Assembly (NCBI GenBank): GCA_937903605.1
Contig: CALCZC010000013.1
Coordinates: forward strand, 1 to 48,989
Reading direction: 5' to 3'
Source of the DNA: an uncultured bacterium
GTDB taxonomy: Bacteria > Patescibacteriota > Patescibacteriia > Magasanikbacterales > GWA2-37-8
DNA length: 48,989 bases
Positions 35,556-48,989 of this stretch are shown piece after piece. The position numbers and the translations under genes are program-made. Under the pieces are notes generated by a model. That model worked only from the letters and a program-made list of their open reading frames with translations, had not been told where the DNA came from and did no database searches. Positions within the stretch are counted from its first letter, which is position 1. Every line of letters begins with the position of its first letter.

Positions 35556-36368
35556 TCAAAGAGGGCTTTTGATATTTTTGATACTGGGATTAGTCACGTG
35601 AGTATATATTTGCGTAGTGCGGATATTGGCGTGGCCCAAAAGCTCTTGTACATAACGTACATCAACGCCGTTTTCTAGTAGGTGAGTGGCGAAACTATGG
35701 CGTAAACTATGAAAGCTAGCGGGTTTTTTGATCCCTGATTTTTTCAATGCTTCTTCAAATATGGCTTGCGCGGTTCTGACGGTGAGTTTGCCACCACGAT
35801 TACTTTCAAAAAGATAATCCTCGCCGTTTCGTTCACCTGTCAAAAAATATAAATCATTTTTGATATTTTCTGGAATAACGGTTATCCTGTCTTTTTTGCC
35901 TTTGCCTTGCCTTACTTTCAAAATTAGTTCATCAAGTAAAACGTCTTTTATTTTCAAATCAACAACTTCACTCACTCGCAATCCCGCTCCATAAGCTAGA
36001 GATAATAGTAACAAATGTTTTTTATTGGTAACTTGAGATAAGATATTTTTGATTTCTTCTTTACTCAAAACTTCCGGCAAAGAATTGTTTCTTTTGGCAA
36101 ATTTTAGATCAACTCTTTGGTTATTTTTCAAAACATCATGATAGAAAAATTTTATAGCGTGTAAATACAAATTAATTGTTTGAGGAGAAAAATGCTTGTC
36201 TTGTTTTGAAAGTAAAAATTGTCTGATTTTGTCTATACTCAAAACCTCAAAATCAACTCTCAAAAAGATAAAATAATCTCTTAAACAGCCAAGATAGGAG
36301 TCAATGGTCCGAGGGCTATAATTACGTAGTCGTAACTCAATCCGAGTTTTGTCTAAAAATTCTTGCAT
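35556..36368 (-). CDS. IntI-like tyrosine recombinase (short form, no I2 insertion)
   Basis: LRLRNYSPRTIDSY N-domain; catalytic GLR, GKGKKDR, HSLRH, LLGH and TQIY; C-terminal SPL as in IntI; divergent from a cassette array. Confidence 0.92.
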   Translation of the reverse strand: MQEFLDKTRIELRLRNYSPRTIDSYLGCLRDYFIFLRVDFEVLSIDKIRQFLLSKQDKHFSPQTINLYLHAIKFFYHDVLKNNQRVDLKFAKRNNSLPEVLSKEEIKNILSQVTNKKHLLLLSLAYGAGLRVSEVVDLKIKDVLLDELILKVRQGKGKKDRITVIPENIKNDLYFLTGERNGEDYLFESNRGGKLTVRTAQAIFEEALKKSGIKKPASFHSLRHSFATHLLENGVDVRYVQELLGHANIRTTQIYTHVTNPSIKNIKSPL

Positions 36369-36473
36369 ATTTTGATAAAAAAGAGTAAAATTTGTATATA
36401 TTTATATACAACAACATTATACATAAAATTCGTAAAATATACAAATTTAGGTATATTTCACGTAGTTTTATTC

Positions 36474-36493
36474 GTATAACAACCAGTTGCGCA
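36474..36493 (+). other. Candidate attI site
   Basis: GTATAAC-AACCA-G|TT, an inverted AAC/GTT core with a 5-bp spacer, 105 bp upstream of the integrase start. The first mini-cassette begins at the G|TT. Confidence 0.6.
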
Positions 36494-36639
36494 AAATTTC
36501 GCTTCGCTCATTTTGCGCAATGTGCGGCGCATAACTGCGCCAGCTGTGCTTCGCGAAGCTTCGCACAACTGTCGCATATCCAAAATGGCGATCTGATGAC
36601 AAAGTCATCATCTCACCACTTCGGATTATGCGCCGCACA
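36487..36639 (+). mobile_element. 153-bp gene-less mini-cassette type A, copy 1
   Basis: TTGCGCAAAAT...GCCGCACA, identical to copies 2-4; inserted at G|TT. Confidence 0.9.
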
Positions 36640-36826
36640 TTATACGCAATTCAAAAAATATTTTTCTTTTAATAAGGAATTTTGACAGGCTTTTTTAAAG
36701 GGGAATAAATTTGTTTTTTTATTTATTAGAAAGGGGTATAAGGTGTTTTCTCCGCTTCGCTACGAAAACGATTTATTTATAAGGGGAAAACGAATACAAT
36801 ACAAATACCTATCACGAAAATAATTT

Positions 36827-43279: not shown

Positions 43280-43541
43280 ATGGGGTAAGCAAATAAAAGG
43301 CAAAAATTCCCTCCCCTTAAACCCCTTCCTTTTTGCCTTTTATTTGAAGAGAATAAGGAGTTTTGGATTTTGGGCATTCACCCCTAACCCCTCTGCCCAA
43401 AATCCAAAACAAAAAAACAAATTTATGATTATTGAATAAAAAGCCTGTCAAAATGAAATTGAATGAAAAATATTTTTTGAACTCGCTCCTTTCAATCGCG
43501 CCCCGCTGCGCTCTCGCCTCCGCTACGCTACGGCTCGGGGC

Positions 43542-43640
43542 GTATAACACAGCGTATGCGGTTCGGGGCTCGGCTCGCCCCTCACCCATATTTTTGCTCC
43601 CGTTGGTCGCAAAAACATCGCATACGCTGGAACGTTGCGC
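43542..43640 (+). other. attC site 1
   Basis: R'' GTATAAC, L'' CAGCGTATGCG, L' CGCATACGCTG, then GAAC-G|TT. CGTATAAC complements the cassette start G+TTATACG (36640). Confidence 0.85.
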
Positions 43641-43787
43641 AAAATTTCGCTTCGCTCATTTTGCGCAATGTGCGGCGCATAACTGCGCCAGCTGTGCTTC
43701 GCGAAGCTTCGCACAACTGTCGCATATCCAAAATGGCGATCTGATGACAAAGTCATCATCTCACCACTTCGGATTATGCGCCGCACA
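43635..43787 (+). mobile_element. 153-bp mini-cassette type A, copy 2
   Basis: Identical to 36487-36639. Confidence 0.9.
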
Positions 43788-43811: not shown

Positions 43812-44612
43812 ATGATAATCGACAGTCATTTACATCTATCATACTTAGATGAAGAGAAAAAAAATCTTTTCGAAGTAAAAAAAGAACTTTTAGAATCAAT
43901 GGAAAAATACGGTATTGATTATTCGATTGTCATTCCCGATAACGTGCCAAACCCAAAATGCGCTGATACAGAAACAATGTTTAATATCATTGGAGACGAC
44001 AAACAGTTTTTTTCAATGGGAACCATAAATATTTTTCAAGATATAGAAAAACAAATATTAAATTTAGAATCACTGATAACGGCCAAAAAAATTTGCGCTA
44101 TCAAGCTTTTTCCTGGACACGACCCCTTCTATCCTGTCGATGAGAAATGCCAACTAATTTATGAATTATGCGCTAAACACGATATTCCAGTTGTTTTTCA
44201 TACTGGTGCAAACACTGGAAATGCTGATTGCGCAAAATATAATGATCCAAAATACATTGTCGAAATTGCAAAAAAATACAACACCTTAAAAGTTGTCATT
44301 TCACATTTTTTTTGGCCTAAGATGGAATATTGTTATGAGGCAACCAAAGACTTGAAAAATATTTATTACGATACTTCAGCAATGGCAGATGATGAAGTTG
44401 TTGAAAGTTCTGGTGGCTGGGATAAAGTTGTAGAAATATTGAAAAAAACTGTTTTACATAAACCTAAAAACGTTTTGTTTGGCACTGACTGGCCAATGTG
44501 CCCTGTCGATAAACACATAAAATTAATCAAAGATTTGGGATTAGATTCCAGAACCGAAGAAAAGATTTTTTTTCTTAACACAGTTGATCTATATAAACTC
44601 GAAATTTTGTGA
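43812..44612 (+). CDS. Amidohydrolase_2-family metal-dependent hydrolase (cassette gene)
   Basis: IIDSHLHL, IKLFPG, VVFHTG, ISHFFWP, YYDTS and LFGTDWP. Start moved to ATG 43812. Confidence 0.88.
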   Translation: MIIDSHLHLSYLDEEKKNLFEVKKELLESMEKYGIDYSIVIPDNVPNPKCADTETMFNIIGDDKQFFSMGTINIFQDIEKQILNLESLITAKKICAIKLFPGHDPFYPVDEKCQLIYELCAKHDIPVVFHTGANTGNADCAKYNDPKYIVEIAKKYNTLKVVISHFFWPKMEYCYEATKDLKNIYYDTSAMADDEVVESSGGWDKVVEILKKTVLHKPKNVLFGTDWPMCPVDKHIKLIKDLGLDSRTEEKIFFLNTVDLYKLEIL

Positions 44613-44620
44613 TGTACTTC

Positions 44621-44777
44621 ATATAACACCTGCCTATGCGGTTACAGAATTTTTCCAAATCCAATTAACGCCAAGGAATAAAAAATTCTTCCACCCAAAT
44701 TTTTATCTTTCTTTTCTTAAGAGAATTAACATCAAGGAAGAAAGATAAAAACTTCGCATCATCCGGATACGTTGCGC
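44621..44777 (+). other. attC site 2
   Basis: CATATAAC complements the cassette start G+TTATATG (43788); CTATGCG...CGCAT arms (imperfect, possibly hybrid); GGATAC-G|TT. Confidence 0.75.
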
Positions 44778-44924
44778 AAAATTTCGCTTCGCTCATTTTG
44801 CGCAATGTGCGGCGCATAACTGCGCCAGCTGTGCTTCGCGAAGCTTCGCACAACTGTCGCATATCCAAAATGGCGATCTGATGACAAAGTCATCATCTCA
44901 CCACTTCGGATTATGCGCCGCACA
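44772..44924 (+). mobile_element. 153-bp mini-cassette type A, copy 3
   Basis: Identical to copy 1. Confidence 0.9.
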
Positions 44925-44943
44925 TTATATAAAATTTTATACT

Positions 44944-45270
44944 ATGAAAAAATTGATTGTCGTTTTATCCAGCGGTGCATTGGTTCTACCAGAAATAGCT
45001 AATGCGTGTTATTTAACGCCCAATTTTAAGAATATTTTTTTAAGTGGCATTATTGGCCTGGTCTTATCCGCCATACTGATAACATTAATTCATAAAAAAA
45101 TAAGTAAGTTATTTGCAAAAAAATACAAATATTATTTGCTGTTTATACCAATTTACATAATAATGACCTTGATACTCATTATGATTATCCCGCTGGATAA
45201 AACGACAATTGAATGTGGGAATACTACAGGAAATGAGCAACTACCAGAAAATTTTGGCAAAACGCCATAA
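44944..45270 (+). CDS. Small membrane protein (cassette gene)
   Basis: 108 aa from ATG 44944, signal-like N-terminus and 2 TM helices. Confidence 0.7.
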   Translation: MKKLIVVLSSGALVLPEIANACYLTPNFKNIFLSGIIGLVLSAILITLIHKKISKLFAKKYKYYLLFIPIYIIMTLILIMIIPLDKTTIECGNTTGNEQLPENFGKTP

Positions 45271-45313
45271 ATACCGGAAATCAAAACGATATTTTTTCAT
45301 AGTATAAAACTTT

Positions 45314-45726
45314 ATATAACAGCGTATATACGGCTCACAAGCGAAATAAAATTATTTTTTCTTTTATGCGTGGAGATAACAACATTTTACGGTTAGACGG
45401 CGCAAATATGGATATTGATTTGACTTCCGGGGATAAAACTTCGTGGAAGCAAACAGAATGTCCATGGAATGAGGCCGAGGGTACAAATGAACACAAATGC
45501 GCCGTCAAAAATGTTTCTATTTGCAAATATTTCTGCGGAATTGAGTATTTAGACAATGTTTTGTGCTGTTATCCCAACAAAAATATGCTGGTGGATAACA
45601 AACAGAAAAAATAATTATATTTTTAATCGCTTGTTCGCCCAAATTCGGTTTCCGTTTTGTGTTGGCGCTCCGCGCAATTTTAACACAAAACTACAACCGA
45701 ACTTCGTATATACGCGTACATTGCGC
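45314..45726 (+). other. attC site 3, with a ~400-bp variable region containing an ORF
   Basis: TTATATAAC complements the cassette start G+TTATATAA (44925); GCGTATATACG (45322-45332) pairs with CGTATATACGC (45705-45715); then GTAC-A|TT. Confidence 0.75.
45366..45614 (+). CDS. Small Cys-rich hypothetical protein inside attC3
   Basis: 82-aa ATG ORF with 6 Cys; protein-like composition in otherwise structured DNA. Confidence 0.55.
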   Translation: MRGDNNILRLDGANMDIDLTSGDKTSWKQTECPWNEAEGTNEHKCAVKNVSICKYFCGIEYLDNVLCCYPNKNMLVDNKQKK

Positions 45727-45873
45727 AAAATTTCGCTTCGCTCATTTTGCGCAATGTGCGGCGCATAACTGCGCCAGCTGTGCTTCGCGAAGCTTCGCAC
45801 AACTGTCGCATATCCAAAATGGCGATCTGATGACAAAGTCATCATCTCACCACTTCGGATTATGCGCCGCACA
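45721..45873 (+). mobile_element. 153-bp mini-cassette type A, copy 4
   Basis: Identical to copy 1. Confidence 0.9.
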
Positions 45874-45934: not shown

Positions 45935-46330
45935 ATGAAAATTTTTGTTCAATTTGTTTCAAGCTTAGTGGGCGGCATATTGTTAGGCATCATTGGACTT
46001 TTTATTGGCTCCATGATTGGCGGCAATTTCGGCTTCCCTGAATTCGGAGGTAACGTTGGATATCAAGCAGGAGGCCCTTTTTTCGGAATTATTGGAATTT
46101 CGCTAGGAAGCCTCCTTGGAATAATAGCTGCTAAAAGAATTCAAAAGGATCAGTTTATATATTCAATAACCTCAATAGCCGCCATTATAACAACTATTAT
46201 CGGCTTACTTCTTTTTGATTACAATATGCCGCCAGCTATTGGCTTTAGTATACCTTTGATGCCAGCAATAGTATTAATAATCGTCACAAATTGGCAAAAA
46301 TTTTTTAAAATTAAACTAAATAAAACTTAG
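45935..46330 (+). CDS. Gly-rich multi-TM membrane protein (cassette gene)
   Basis: 131 aa, about 4 TM helices with GxxxG repeats. Confidence 0.7.
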   Translation: MKIFVQFVSSLVGGILLGIIGLFIGSMIGGNFGFPEFGGNVGYQAGGPFFGIIGISLGSLLGIIAAKRIQKDQFIYSITSIAAIITTIIGLLLFDYNMPPAIGFSIPLMPAIVLIIVTNWQKFFKIKLNKT

Positions 46331-46345
46331 CCAAAATTCAACATC

Positions 46346-46432
46346 ACTTAACACGGGATACACGGTAAAGTCTTTCGCGGAAAGACTTTACTCAAATTGC
46401 TACGCAACTTCGCTTATCCCGGAACGTTATCT
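46346..46432 (+). other. attC site 4
   Basis: CACTTAAC complements the cassette start G+TTAAGTG (45874); CGGGATA...TATCCCG arms; internal hairpin GTAAAGTCTTTC/GAAAGACTTTAC; GAAC-G|TT. Confidence 0.85.
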
Positions 46433-46596
46433 AAAATGTCTCTCGCTCCGCTCGCTCCATTTTAGATAATGTGGCGCGTATATCTCCGCTGTTCTCCTCG
46501 CGTCGCTTCGCGACACTTCAGATAACAGCGGATAATCTGTAATATCTGTCTGACGACTTCGTCGTCATCCAGCTACTACAGATTATCCGCGCCACA
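46427..46596 (+). mobile_element. 170-bp gene-less mini-cassette type B
   Basis: TTATCTAAAATG/CATTTTAGATAA hairpin, then AATGTGGCGCG...CGCGCCACA|TT main stem with two branches; same layout as type A with a different sequence. Confidence 0.8.
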
Positions 46597-48694: not shown

Positions 48695-48989
48695 AGTGCC
48701 CGCCCCAAAGGGGCCCCTTCGGGGGTGTGGGAATCTGCTTCGCCTCTCGTCGTCTTCCGACTCCTCGGGCTAGCCACCAGCTCGCGGTTTTACTCGCCCG
48801 CAAGCTCGTAAAACATCGCTCCGCTGTTCTCATCCTGACGCGAGCAAACAGTTTTGCTCGCTCCCCAGACAAAATAACACAGACCAAAAAAGGTCTGTGT
48901 TATTTTGTCTGGGGCGGGAATTCCTCGTCGTCTCGCCGACAAATATCGGCTCGACTCCTTGCCCTGGGCAGCGTCGGATTCACACTGTG
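48695..48989 (-). repeat. Tandem GC-rich palindromic elements related to the tRNA-fMet-associated element
   Basis: The reverse complement of 48744-48778 matches 20578-20612 at 30/35. A perfect 23-bp inverted repeat lies at 48863-48885/48892-48914. Confidence 0.75.

Follow-up and report, generated by a model that had tools for sequence, protein, structure and literature searches.

The AAT/ATT recombination core of the gene-less mini-cassettes (minis) described here belongs, we propose with moderate confidence and from the sequence evidence below, to one of two alternative closures of the same recombination arm, each excluding the other, in a cargo-less cassette of an integron-like system whose integrase has no I2 region. 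The window is the whole stretch of DNA that was analyzed, 48,989 nucleotides from an uncultured bacterium of the Patescibacteriota. The AAT...A|TT closure, in which the bar marks the crossover and which we call fold I, is real and is conserved across many ultra-small bacteria. Folds I and II are both conserved, and both covary with the mini's own start. We regard the AAT/ATT core as a first-nucleotide variant within a bistable site and probably not as a new recombination code; nor does it show that the integrase has given up AAC/GTT.

What do these minis look like? One is present at each of the five junctions of the array in the window (Table 1), and each gene cassette begins directly after a mini. 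The stretch 36519-36645, to which the first-pass annotation had drawn attention, is the right-hand three quarters of mini copy 1, which lies between the start of the integrase gene and a 7-kb restriction-modification/HerA cassette. Read directly, the layout is G|TTGCGCAAAAT, 12 nt, ATTTTGCGCAAT, GTGCGGCGCATAA...TTATGCGCCGCAC-A|TT, and the mini boundaries match the crossover point to the base. In each mini a single R', formed on circularization by A|TT and the first ~10 nt of the mini itself, is accompanied by two R'' boxes. The unitig of the mini in the source metagenome has ~4 times the depth of its flank (39.8 vs 9.6), and no copies were seen outside cassette arrays in this genome.

Table 1. 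Features of the cassette array, with positions in the window
Feature	Position	Strand	Description
Tyrosine recombinase (XerA/IntI-like)	35556-36368	-	270 aa; Pfam Phage_integrase and SAM_4
attI-like left part TTCGTATAACAACCAG	36472-36486	+	Ends in the G of G|TT; conserved in G013
attI without mini			Would read attI G joined to TTATACGC
Gene-less mini copy 1 (type A)	36487-36639	- (better-folding strand)	153 nt; match of covariance model R1
Start box TTGCGCAAAAT	36487-36497	+	Right half of R' once the mini is circular; complementary to both R'' boxes
R''1 box ATTTTGCGCAAT	36510-36521	+	Ends ...GCGCAAT, AAT at 36519-36521; 11/11 Watson-Crick with R'
L''1 GTGCGGCGCATAA	36522-36534	+	Abuts R''1 without a gap; pairs with 36626-36638, no spacer (fold I)
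R''2 box CTTCGCACAAC	36559-36569	+	AAC at 36567-36569; ordinary-type second R''
1-nt spacer T and L''2 GTCGCATATCC	36570-36581	+	Fold II; SSGNRTATSYG-type L box as in the 52 ordinary sites
L'2 GGATTATGCGC, then 5-nt CGCAC, then R' A|TT	36623-36641	+	A at 36639
Mini 3' arm TTATGCGCCGCAC-A|TT			Junction A at 36639
Ordinary attC1	43538-43634	+	GCGTATAAC a CAGCGTATGCG ... CGCATACGCTG gaac G|TT; R'' complementary to cassette start at 36640
Gene-less mini copy 2	43635-43787	-	153 nt; letter-identical to copy 1
Ordinary attC2	44602-44771	+	R'' ...CATATAAC, ...atac G|TT; 24/26 complementary to start at 43788
Gene-less mini copy 3	44772-44924	-	153 nt; letter-identical to copy 1
Ordinary attC3	45292-45720	+	...TATATAAC a GCGTATATACG ... 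CGTATATACGC gtac A|TT
Gene-less mini copy 4	45721-45873	-	Identical to copy 1; inserted at A|TT of attC3
Ordinary attC4	46326-46426	+	...CACTTAAC a CGGGATA ... TATCCCG gaac G|TT
Variant mini (type B)	46427-46596	-	170 nt; R''1 AAT at 46468-70; A|TT at 46596
Variant mini R''2 box CTTCAGATAAC	46516-46526		

Fold I of the circularized mini is a helix of 25 uninterrupted bp (22-25 bp, perfect) with neither a bulge nor an extrahelical base, and within it the arms at 36519-36534 and 36626-36641 are complementary at 16/16 positions. The first-pass annotation had described all five minis as closing on R''=AAT and R'=A|TT with no unpaired spacer, and attC3 as ending in GTAC-A|TT at 45720; both descriptions are confirmed by direct reading, attC3 ending in ...GCGTAC-A|TT with the A at 45720. 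The variant mini keeps the architecture by means of 14 compensatory pairs relative to type A, and the covariance model built from these two local mini types has 52 pairs, including those 14. Together with the covariation of R''1 and the junction base among 42 family members, discussed below, these compensatory pairs argue that the architecture of fold I is not a product of chance. Similarly, the outer L''1 5-mer covaries with its partner across the mini family (GGGTC/GACCC, GTGGC/GCCAC, GGCGC/GCGCC and others). In isolation, fold I of copy 1 is calculated at -58.4 kcal/mol and fold II at -37.9 kcal/mol; the variant mini gives -54.7 and -37.4 kcal/mol, respectively. Compensatory change maintains Watson-Crick pairing at the crossover in fold I, which suggests that selection acts on this fold as far as the cleavage site. 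Fold I alone is retained in two 57-nt "micro" units, and it is the only fold that one T-class unit (L075) fits. The micro units (L066:1666-1722 in G073 and L069:10057-10113 in G076) consist of the start, an AAT box, a 9-bp stem and A|TT with no AAC box, and arose by deletion between CCGC repeats of a full mini in the same genome.

The gene cassettes themselves end in attC-like sites of a more familiar kind. Toward its far end each cassette has a box, ending in TAAC, that can pair with the cassette's own first 18-26 nt; the match is 24/26 for cassettes 2 and 3 and 20/26 for cassette 4, and it is split in cassette 1. Downstream of the TAAC box lie 1 nt, the L'' arm, a loop, the L' arm, 4 nt (gaac, atac or gtac) and [G/A]|TT. 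The consensus of 52 such sites is CATCNNNTAAC-a-SSGNRTATSYG...RWAC-[G38/A14]|TT, with R'' reading CATC-N3-T-AAC and an asymmetric spacer of 1 nt vs 3-4 nt; these counts describe fitting sites only, as the scans required AAC and a near-perfect stem (>=10/11 pairs). A less constrained hairpin scan also gave AT-rich matches, which we regard as unrelated hairpins. The one attC3 is an AAC/ATT site, which gives a T.G wobble on the bottom strand. No extrahelical bases were seen in the 11-bp L stems by the scan requiring >=10/11 pairs, in agreement with the first-pass annotation, which had seen no obvious extrahelical base near the core of the minis; a one-sided bulge of 3-5 nt is present in the ordinary sites and in fold II, and fold I has neither bulge nor extrahelical base.

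Several further structures were noted in or near the cassettes. A 58-nt GC-rich insertion (43482-43539) splits the long R'' arm of cassette 1, and similar GC-rich loops, of the CGCTTCGCT type, are found in many hairpins of this otherwise AT-rich genome. Cassette 1 ends with a perfect 17-bp hairpin (CAAATAAAAGGCAAAAA/TTTTTGCCTTTTATTTG, 43290-43346) that is identical in G013 (L022 8304-8360), and thus the 3' ends of the first cassettes, comprising the hairpin and what lies just after it, are common to two genera while the genes differ. The open reading frame of cassette 3 contains a perfect 18-nt inverted repeat (TTGTCGTTTTATCCAGCG/CGCTGGATAAAACGACAA, 44957-44974 and 45191-45208) flanked by A|TT and AAT, resembling a nested site. 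Finally, the contig end (48690-48989) is GC-rich and strongly structured, with a hairpin at 48858-48919 (AAAATAACACAGACC/GGTCTGTGTTATTTT) that may be another type of site; the contig breaks at 48989, where this structured stretch ends.

The scan for the ordinary-site architecture repeatedly matched mini interiors, and this is how the internal AAC box was found. Every full mini has this second R'', 48-56 nt downstream of R''1, and R''2 is AAC in 37/42 minis irrespective of the junction base. Fold II runs CATC-N4-AAC, 1 nt, an 11-nt L box centered on TAT, a loop and L', after which 5 bulged nt lead to A|TT. The consensus of the 31 mini-internal modules is CATCGCATAAC-a/t-GCGGNTATNCN...5 nt-[mostly A]|TT. 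Thus, with R''2, spacer, 11-nt arms, bulge and A|TT in the consensus order, each full mini contains a complete ordinary-type site, and the bulge geometry on the bottom strand is common to fold II and the ordinary sites. Folds I and II share the 3' arm and are mutually exclusive; for example, the CGCAC 5-mer is bulged in fold II and paired in fold I. A constrained fold II of copy 1 is feasible at the energy given above, and its R''2/R' helix has 10/10 pairs on the bottom strand, including three G.T pairs that are A.C mismatches on the top strand. Among 25 distinct minis with 19 different R''2 tetramers, the variable tetramer is complementary to the mini's own start at 88/100 positions (shuffles 49+/-4; 0/5000 reach 88). 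The likeness of R''2 to R''1 could nevertheless reflect descent and not pairing.

How widespread is the AAT/A|TT closure? The covariance model finds the mini family in 16/100 genomes of the taxonomic family and in 36/240 genomes of the order, where 28/114 genera are represented. Among 42 junction-distinct members from other genomes, R''1 is AAT in 34, AAC in 7 and AAA in 1; at the junction, 30 members have A, 11 have G and 1 has T. Free to be G, A or T, the junction base is matched by compensation in R''1: the third base of R''1 and the junction base are T/A in 30 members, C/G in 7, A/T in 1, T/G in 4 and C/A in none (Fisher p=1.5e-5, an indicative value only, as family members are related and the counts overstate independence). 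When R''2 is included, the cores (R''1, R''2, R') are AAT, AAC, A in 25 members, AAC, AAC, G in 7, AAT, AAC, G in 4 and AAA, AAC, T in 1. A rough tree scatters the G-type minis over three or more places and the T/G hybrids over four, with the T-type appearing once. Tabulated over homologous arrays, ATT junctions are common elsewhere, so that the first-pass proposal does not fall on the ground it had named for itself, their absence from other arrays. A degenerate 19-mer scan of genome contigs returned matches that were almost all due to chance and lay in unrelated phyla.

Junctions with G on the left and A on the right of the mini make up ~27/45 junction pairs, and minis with A|TT sit mostly at G|TT targets. 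Two simpler rules were tried and rejected. The first, that identity of the first nucleotide governs mini insertion, fails as the left and right junction bases are uncorrelated. The second was that ordinary sites carry A|TT only before a mini; the early counts of 6/0 vs 12/10 became ~8/5 vs 16/22 with more sites, which is not significant.

Have the A|TT junctions been used? An identical mini precedes at least seven different sequences in this genome, in the congeneric genome G001 and in metagenome contigs. The right neighbors of the type-A mini are four different cassettes in the window and another sequence in G001, and in contigs of three unrelated metagenomes they are the start of a type-B mini or other cassette starts; each time, the similarity among type-A neighborhoods stops directly after CACATT. 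These varied right neighbors of an identical mini imply that A|TT junctions have been used, in the sense of historical junctions preserved in contigs of public runs. We also note that in runs X3, X5 and X9, compared with 36470-36660, a type-A mini is followed by a type-B start (CACATTAT|CTAAAATGTCTC), forming tandem gene-less units.

Removal of the mini restores AAC...G|TT followed by the cassette start, which places the minis exactly at the integron-type crossover point. This result also bears on whether the mini could be an integral, conserved 3' module of a composite attC belonging to each cassette, like VCR repeats, a reading that we hold to be very improbable. The presence of a mini at all five junctions of the array would fit it, as would the pairing of each cassette's R'' with a start lying beyond the mini. 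Against this, G013, which encodes the closest relative of the integrase (76% identical), has two AAC...G|TT cassettes and no mini at any of three junctions, attI (which reads TTCGTATAGTAAAGAG|TT) and attC alike, and relatives of cassette 1 are mini-free there; G036 mixes junctions with and without minis; and the identical mini sits at attI in G001 and adjoins another mini in metagenomes. The mini-free array of G013 indicates that minis are optional insertions and not part of every site. A search of Logan contigs, which drop rare variants, found no mini-less joint at attI.

Might the minis instead be hairpin-ended, non-autonomous elements moved by transposases of the IS200/IS605 Y1 type? The genome encodes two Y1_Tnp proteins (G000:C7:269447-269794 and G000:C8:780-1124), and the minis have subterminal hairpins and make no target duplication. 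Such elements require a constant 4-5-nt target on the left, and the identical mini follows CCAG, AACG, TACG and TACA; furthermore, the insertions are always at [G/A]|TT of attI or attC sites beside the integrase. We rejected Y1 mobilization on this target variability and consider it barely credible.

Calculated as DNA, copy 1 folds at -57.9 kcal/mol on the bottom strand vs -47.4 kcal/mol on the top strand (z -9.4), and the bottom strands of minis generally fold better than the top strands by 8-10 kcal/mol. Non-Watson-Crick pairs are biased in the same direction: in the model structure, bottom-strand G.T pairs outnumber top-strand G.T pairs by 62 vs 8, and in R''2/R' by 96 vs 7. On these predicted energies and pairs, the bottom strand is the folding strand. 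The G.T bias argues for folded single-strand substrates and against plain duplex simple sites, and the recombination of these sites as double-stranded simple sites, which the first-pass annotation had suggested, is accordingly disfavored. The preference also agrees with published work in which the nucleotide skew of unpaired and variable features helps bottom-strand choice (PMC5027507).

Taken alone, the G.T bias fits single-stranded DNA and minus-strand RNA equally, and, on the minus strand, copy 1 precedes the integrase gene. The structure might then act as RNA, either as a minus-strand transcript or as an insulator or terminator between cassettes, and AAT/ATT would have no role in recombination. 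We consider this very unlikely. No Rfam family matches the structure, the Rfam scan of the window yielding tRNAs only, and transcripts of the other copies would run antisense to the cassettes. Moreover, the mini boundaries coincide base-exactly with the crossover, and both R'' boxes track the mini's own start, which is sensible only for a circularized DNA cassette. The public runs in which the stretch was found are all DNA.

The integrase scores 225 bits against the NCBIfam model XerA_Arch, above the cut-off of 220, and 208 bits against integrase_gron (TIGR02249), below the cut-off of 265 and with the match in two pieces. Residues 3-169 and 202-270 align to VchIntIA, and the region corresponding to the IntI-specific insertion (I2) has 32 residues vs 75 in VchIntIA, a gap of 43 residues. 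The first-pass description of an integrase without I2 was correct on both this alignment and the score below the integron-integrase cut-off. One other tyrosine recombinase is encoded elsewhere in the genome.

The premise that IntI substrates need AAC/GTT was stated too strongly. IntI1 cleaves at the A-C step of AAC on the bottom strand, and it accepts any base as the first nucleotide of GTT as long as the two partner sites match, while differing first nucleotides cost 10^3-10^4-fold; G1->A1 sites are cleaved in vitro, and GTT was, according to the authors, kept in all integrons then known (PMC2811028). This freedom of the first nucleotide makes ATT/AAT mechanistically permissible even for a classical integrase. 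Extrahelical bases are another matter: complementing those of a VCR site lowered IntI1 activity from ~10^-1 to 4x10^-5 (PMC2095811), and a site without them would thus be a very poor substrate for IntI1. Given the cost to IntI1 of differing first nucleotides, the norm of G on the left and A on the right suggests that the enzyme studied here may follow other rules. Nor is it accurate to say that the core is not AAC/GTT. That statement overlooked the AAC-bearing R''2 of each full mini and the canonical AAC...G|TT of the neighboring ordinary sites; attI, the ordinary sites and R''2 all have AAC together with a conserved asymmetric spacer. Full-text literature searches found no description of this system.

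We propose that exchange would be integron-like, with bottom-strand cleavage inferred at AA|Y and crossover at [A/G]|TT with a free junction base. At ordinary sites, attI and fold II the receiving base would always be G (from AAC), which accepts C, or T by wobble. Wobble acceptance would explain both the A|TT found without compensation in 27% of ordinary sites and the location of A|TT minis mostly at G|TT targets. Within minis A would be favored: of the four bases, only T on the bottom strand can pair with both boxes (as T-A in fold I and as T.G in fold II), which may account for the dominance of A there.

Which fold is recombined? We give just under an even chance to fold II being the catalytic substrate, in which case fold I would be a more stable competing or masking state. 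Alternatively, and with less probability, fold I itself may be recombined; we retain this alternative on account of its compensated crossover pair, its stability and the two 57-nt derivatives that have only fold I. Equally tentative is the suggestion that the minis are natural bistable sites, switching back and forth between a perfect helix, closed through AAT/ATT, and an open attC of the ordinary type (AAC with A|TT wobble), so that the sole "cargo" would be an antisense mask of the mini's own attC arm. If this is true, bistability and the free G/A base could gate or partition exchanges (A-class vs G-class) for an integrase without I2, and extrahelical bases and the I2 domain would be dispensable for single-strand cassette recombination.

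A reading in the line of the first-pass annotation would go further and make the perfect AAT/ATT fold I the sole substrate, a duplex-like simple site for an I2-less, Xer-like integrase, with ATT sites forming their own compatibility class. Fold I does resemble a duplex-type simple site in being perfectly paired, and its R box, paired 5-bp spacer and L box resemble a core-type site. It is also thermodynamically dominant (by ~20 kcal/mol), its crossover pair is compensated (AAT/A, AAC/G, AAA/T), the micro units keep it alone, and the integrase is of the kind this reading expects. If the identity rule of IntI1 applied, exchanges of the A x A kind between minis would carry cassette and mini along as pairs and so produce the strict alternation seen in the window; G036, however, shows that alternation is not general. 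Likewise, the consensus AAC box and bulge are kept in every full mini, the same integrase serves ordinary sites and attI with AAC/G|TT and an asymmetric spacer, and the minis sit mostly at G|TT targets. The stem of fold I is the same on both strands and offers no strand cue, and yet the junctions are of one polarity. We judge this reading unlikely.

Finally, how do mini-cassettes with two alternative closures compare with known systems? Work on integrons treats GTT/AAC, extrahelical bases and the I2 domain as a fixed grammar. Like integron attC sites and gene-less cassettes, such as the Vibrio cholerae repeats, the sites described here have an R''-L''...L'-R' hairpin layout, a crossover at [G]|TT and an R'' complementary to the cassette's own first bases, and the array diverges from a tyrosine recombinase gene with the bottom strand favored by nucleotide skew. 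The AAC...G|TT core is found in the ordinary sites (G 38, A 14) and attI, the circular-permutation signature in cassettes 2-4 (20-24 of 26) and in both mini boxes, and folding appears, from the calculated structures, to take place on the bottom strand as in integrons. Unlike integrons, the integrase lacks the I2 domain, the L stems showed no extrahelical bases in the scan for near-perfect stems (>=10/11 pairs), the spacer is a one-sided bulge (1 nt vs 3-5 nt), R-arm complementarity reaches 18-26 bp, G or A (rarely T) stands at the junction, and the minis have two alternative R''/L'' sets for a single R'.

A close parallel to fold I is found in the engineered attC/attI1 first-nucleotide mutants of Frumerie et al. 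(2010), in which ATT/AAT likewise entails a complementary change on the folded strand; those mutants undergo cleavage, and a partner with the same base gives full activity (PMC2811028). Unlike those laboratory constructs for IntI1, the variants described here are natural, frequent and mostly found beside G-type partners. The Xer/dif systems offer a second comparison, as archaeal XerA is the closest named protein model of the integrase, and fold I and the restored attI (CGTATAA-CAACCAG-TTATACG) resemble their core sites in having inverted arms around a ~7-bp center. The arms of Xer/dif sites lie 6-8 bp apart, whereas those of the mini are 91 nt apart in the duplex and meet only in the folded strand; the restored attI is symmetric here and that of G013 is not, and, in contrast to Xer/dif, a genome here has numerous sites, with cargo lying between one and the next. 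Thus a natural system that is widespread in ultra-small bacteria appears to have kept the AAC box and bottom-strand folding and dropped I2 and extrahelical bases, while its crossover base varies with compensation and a second, competing helix has been added. We propose that the minis could serve as concrete natural substrates for asking what sets strand and partner choice in folded-DNA recombination.
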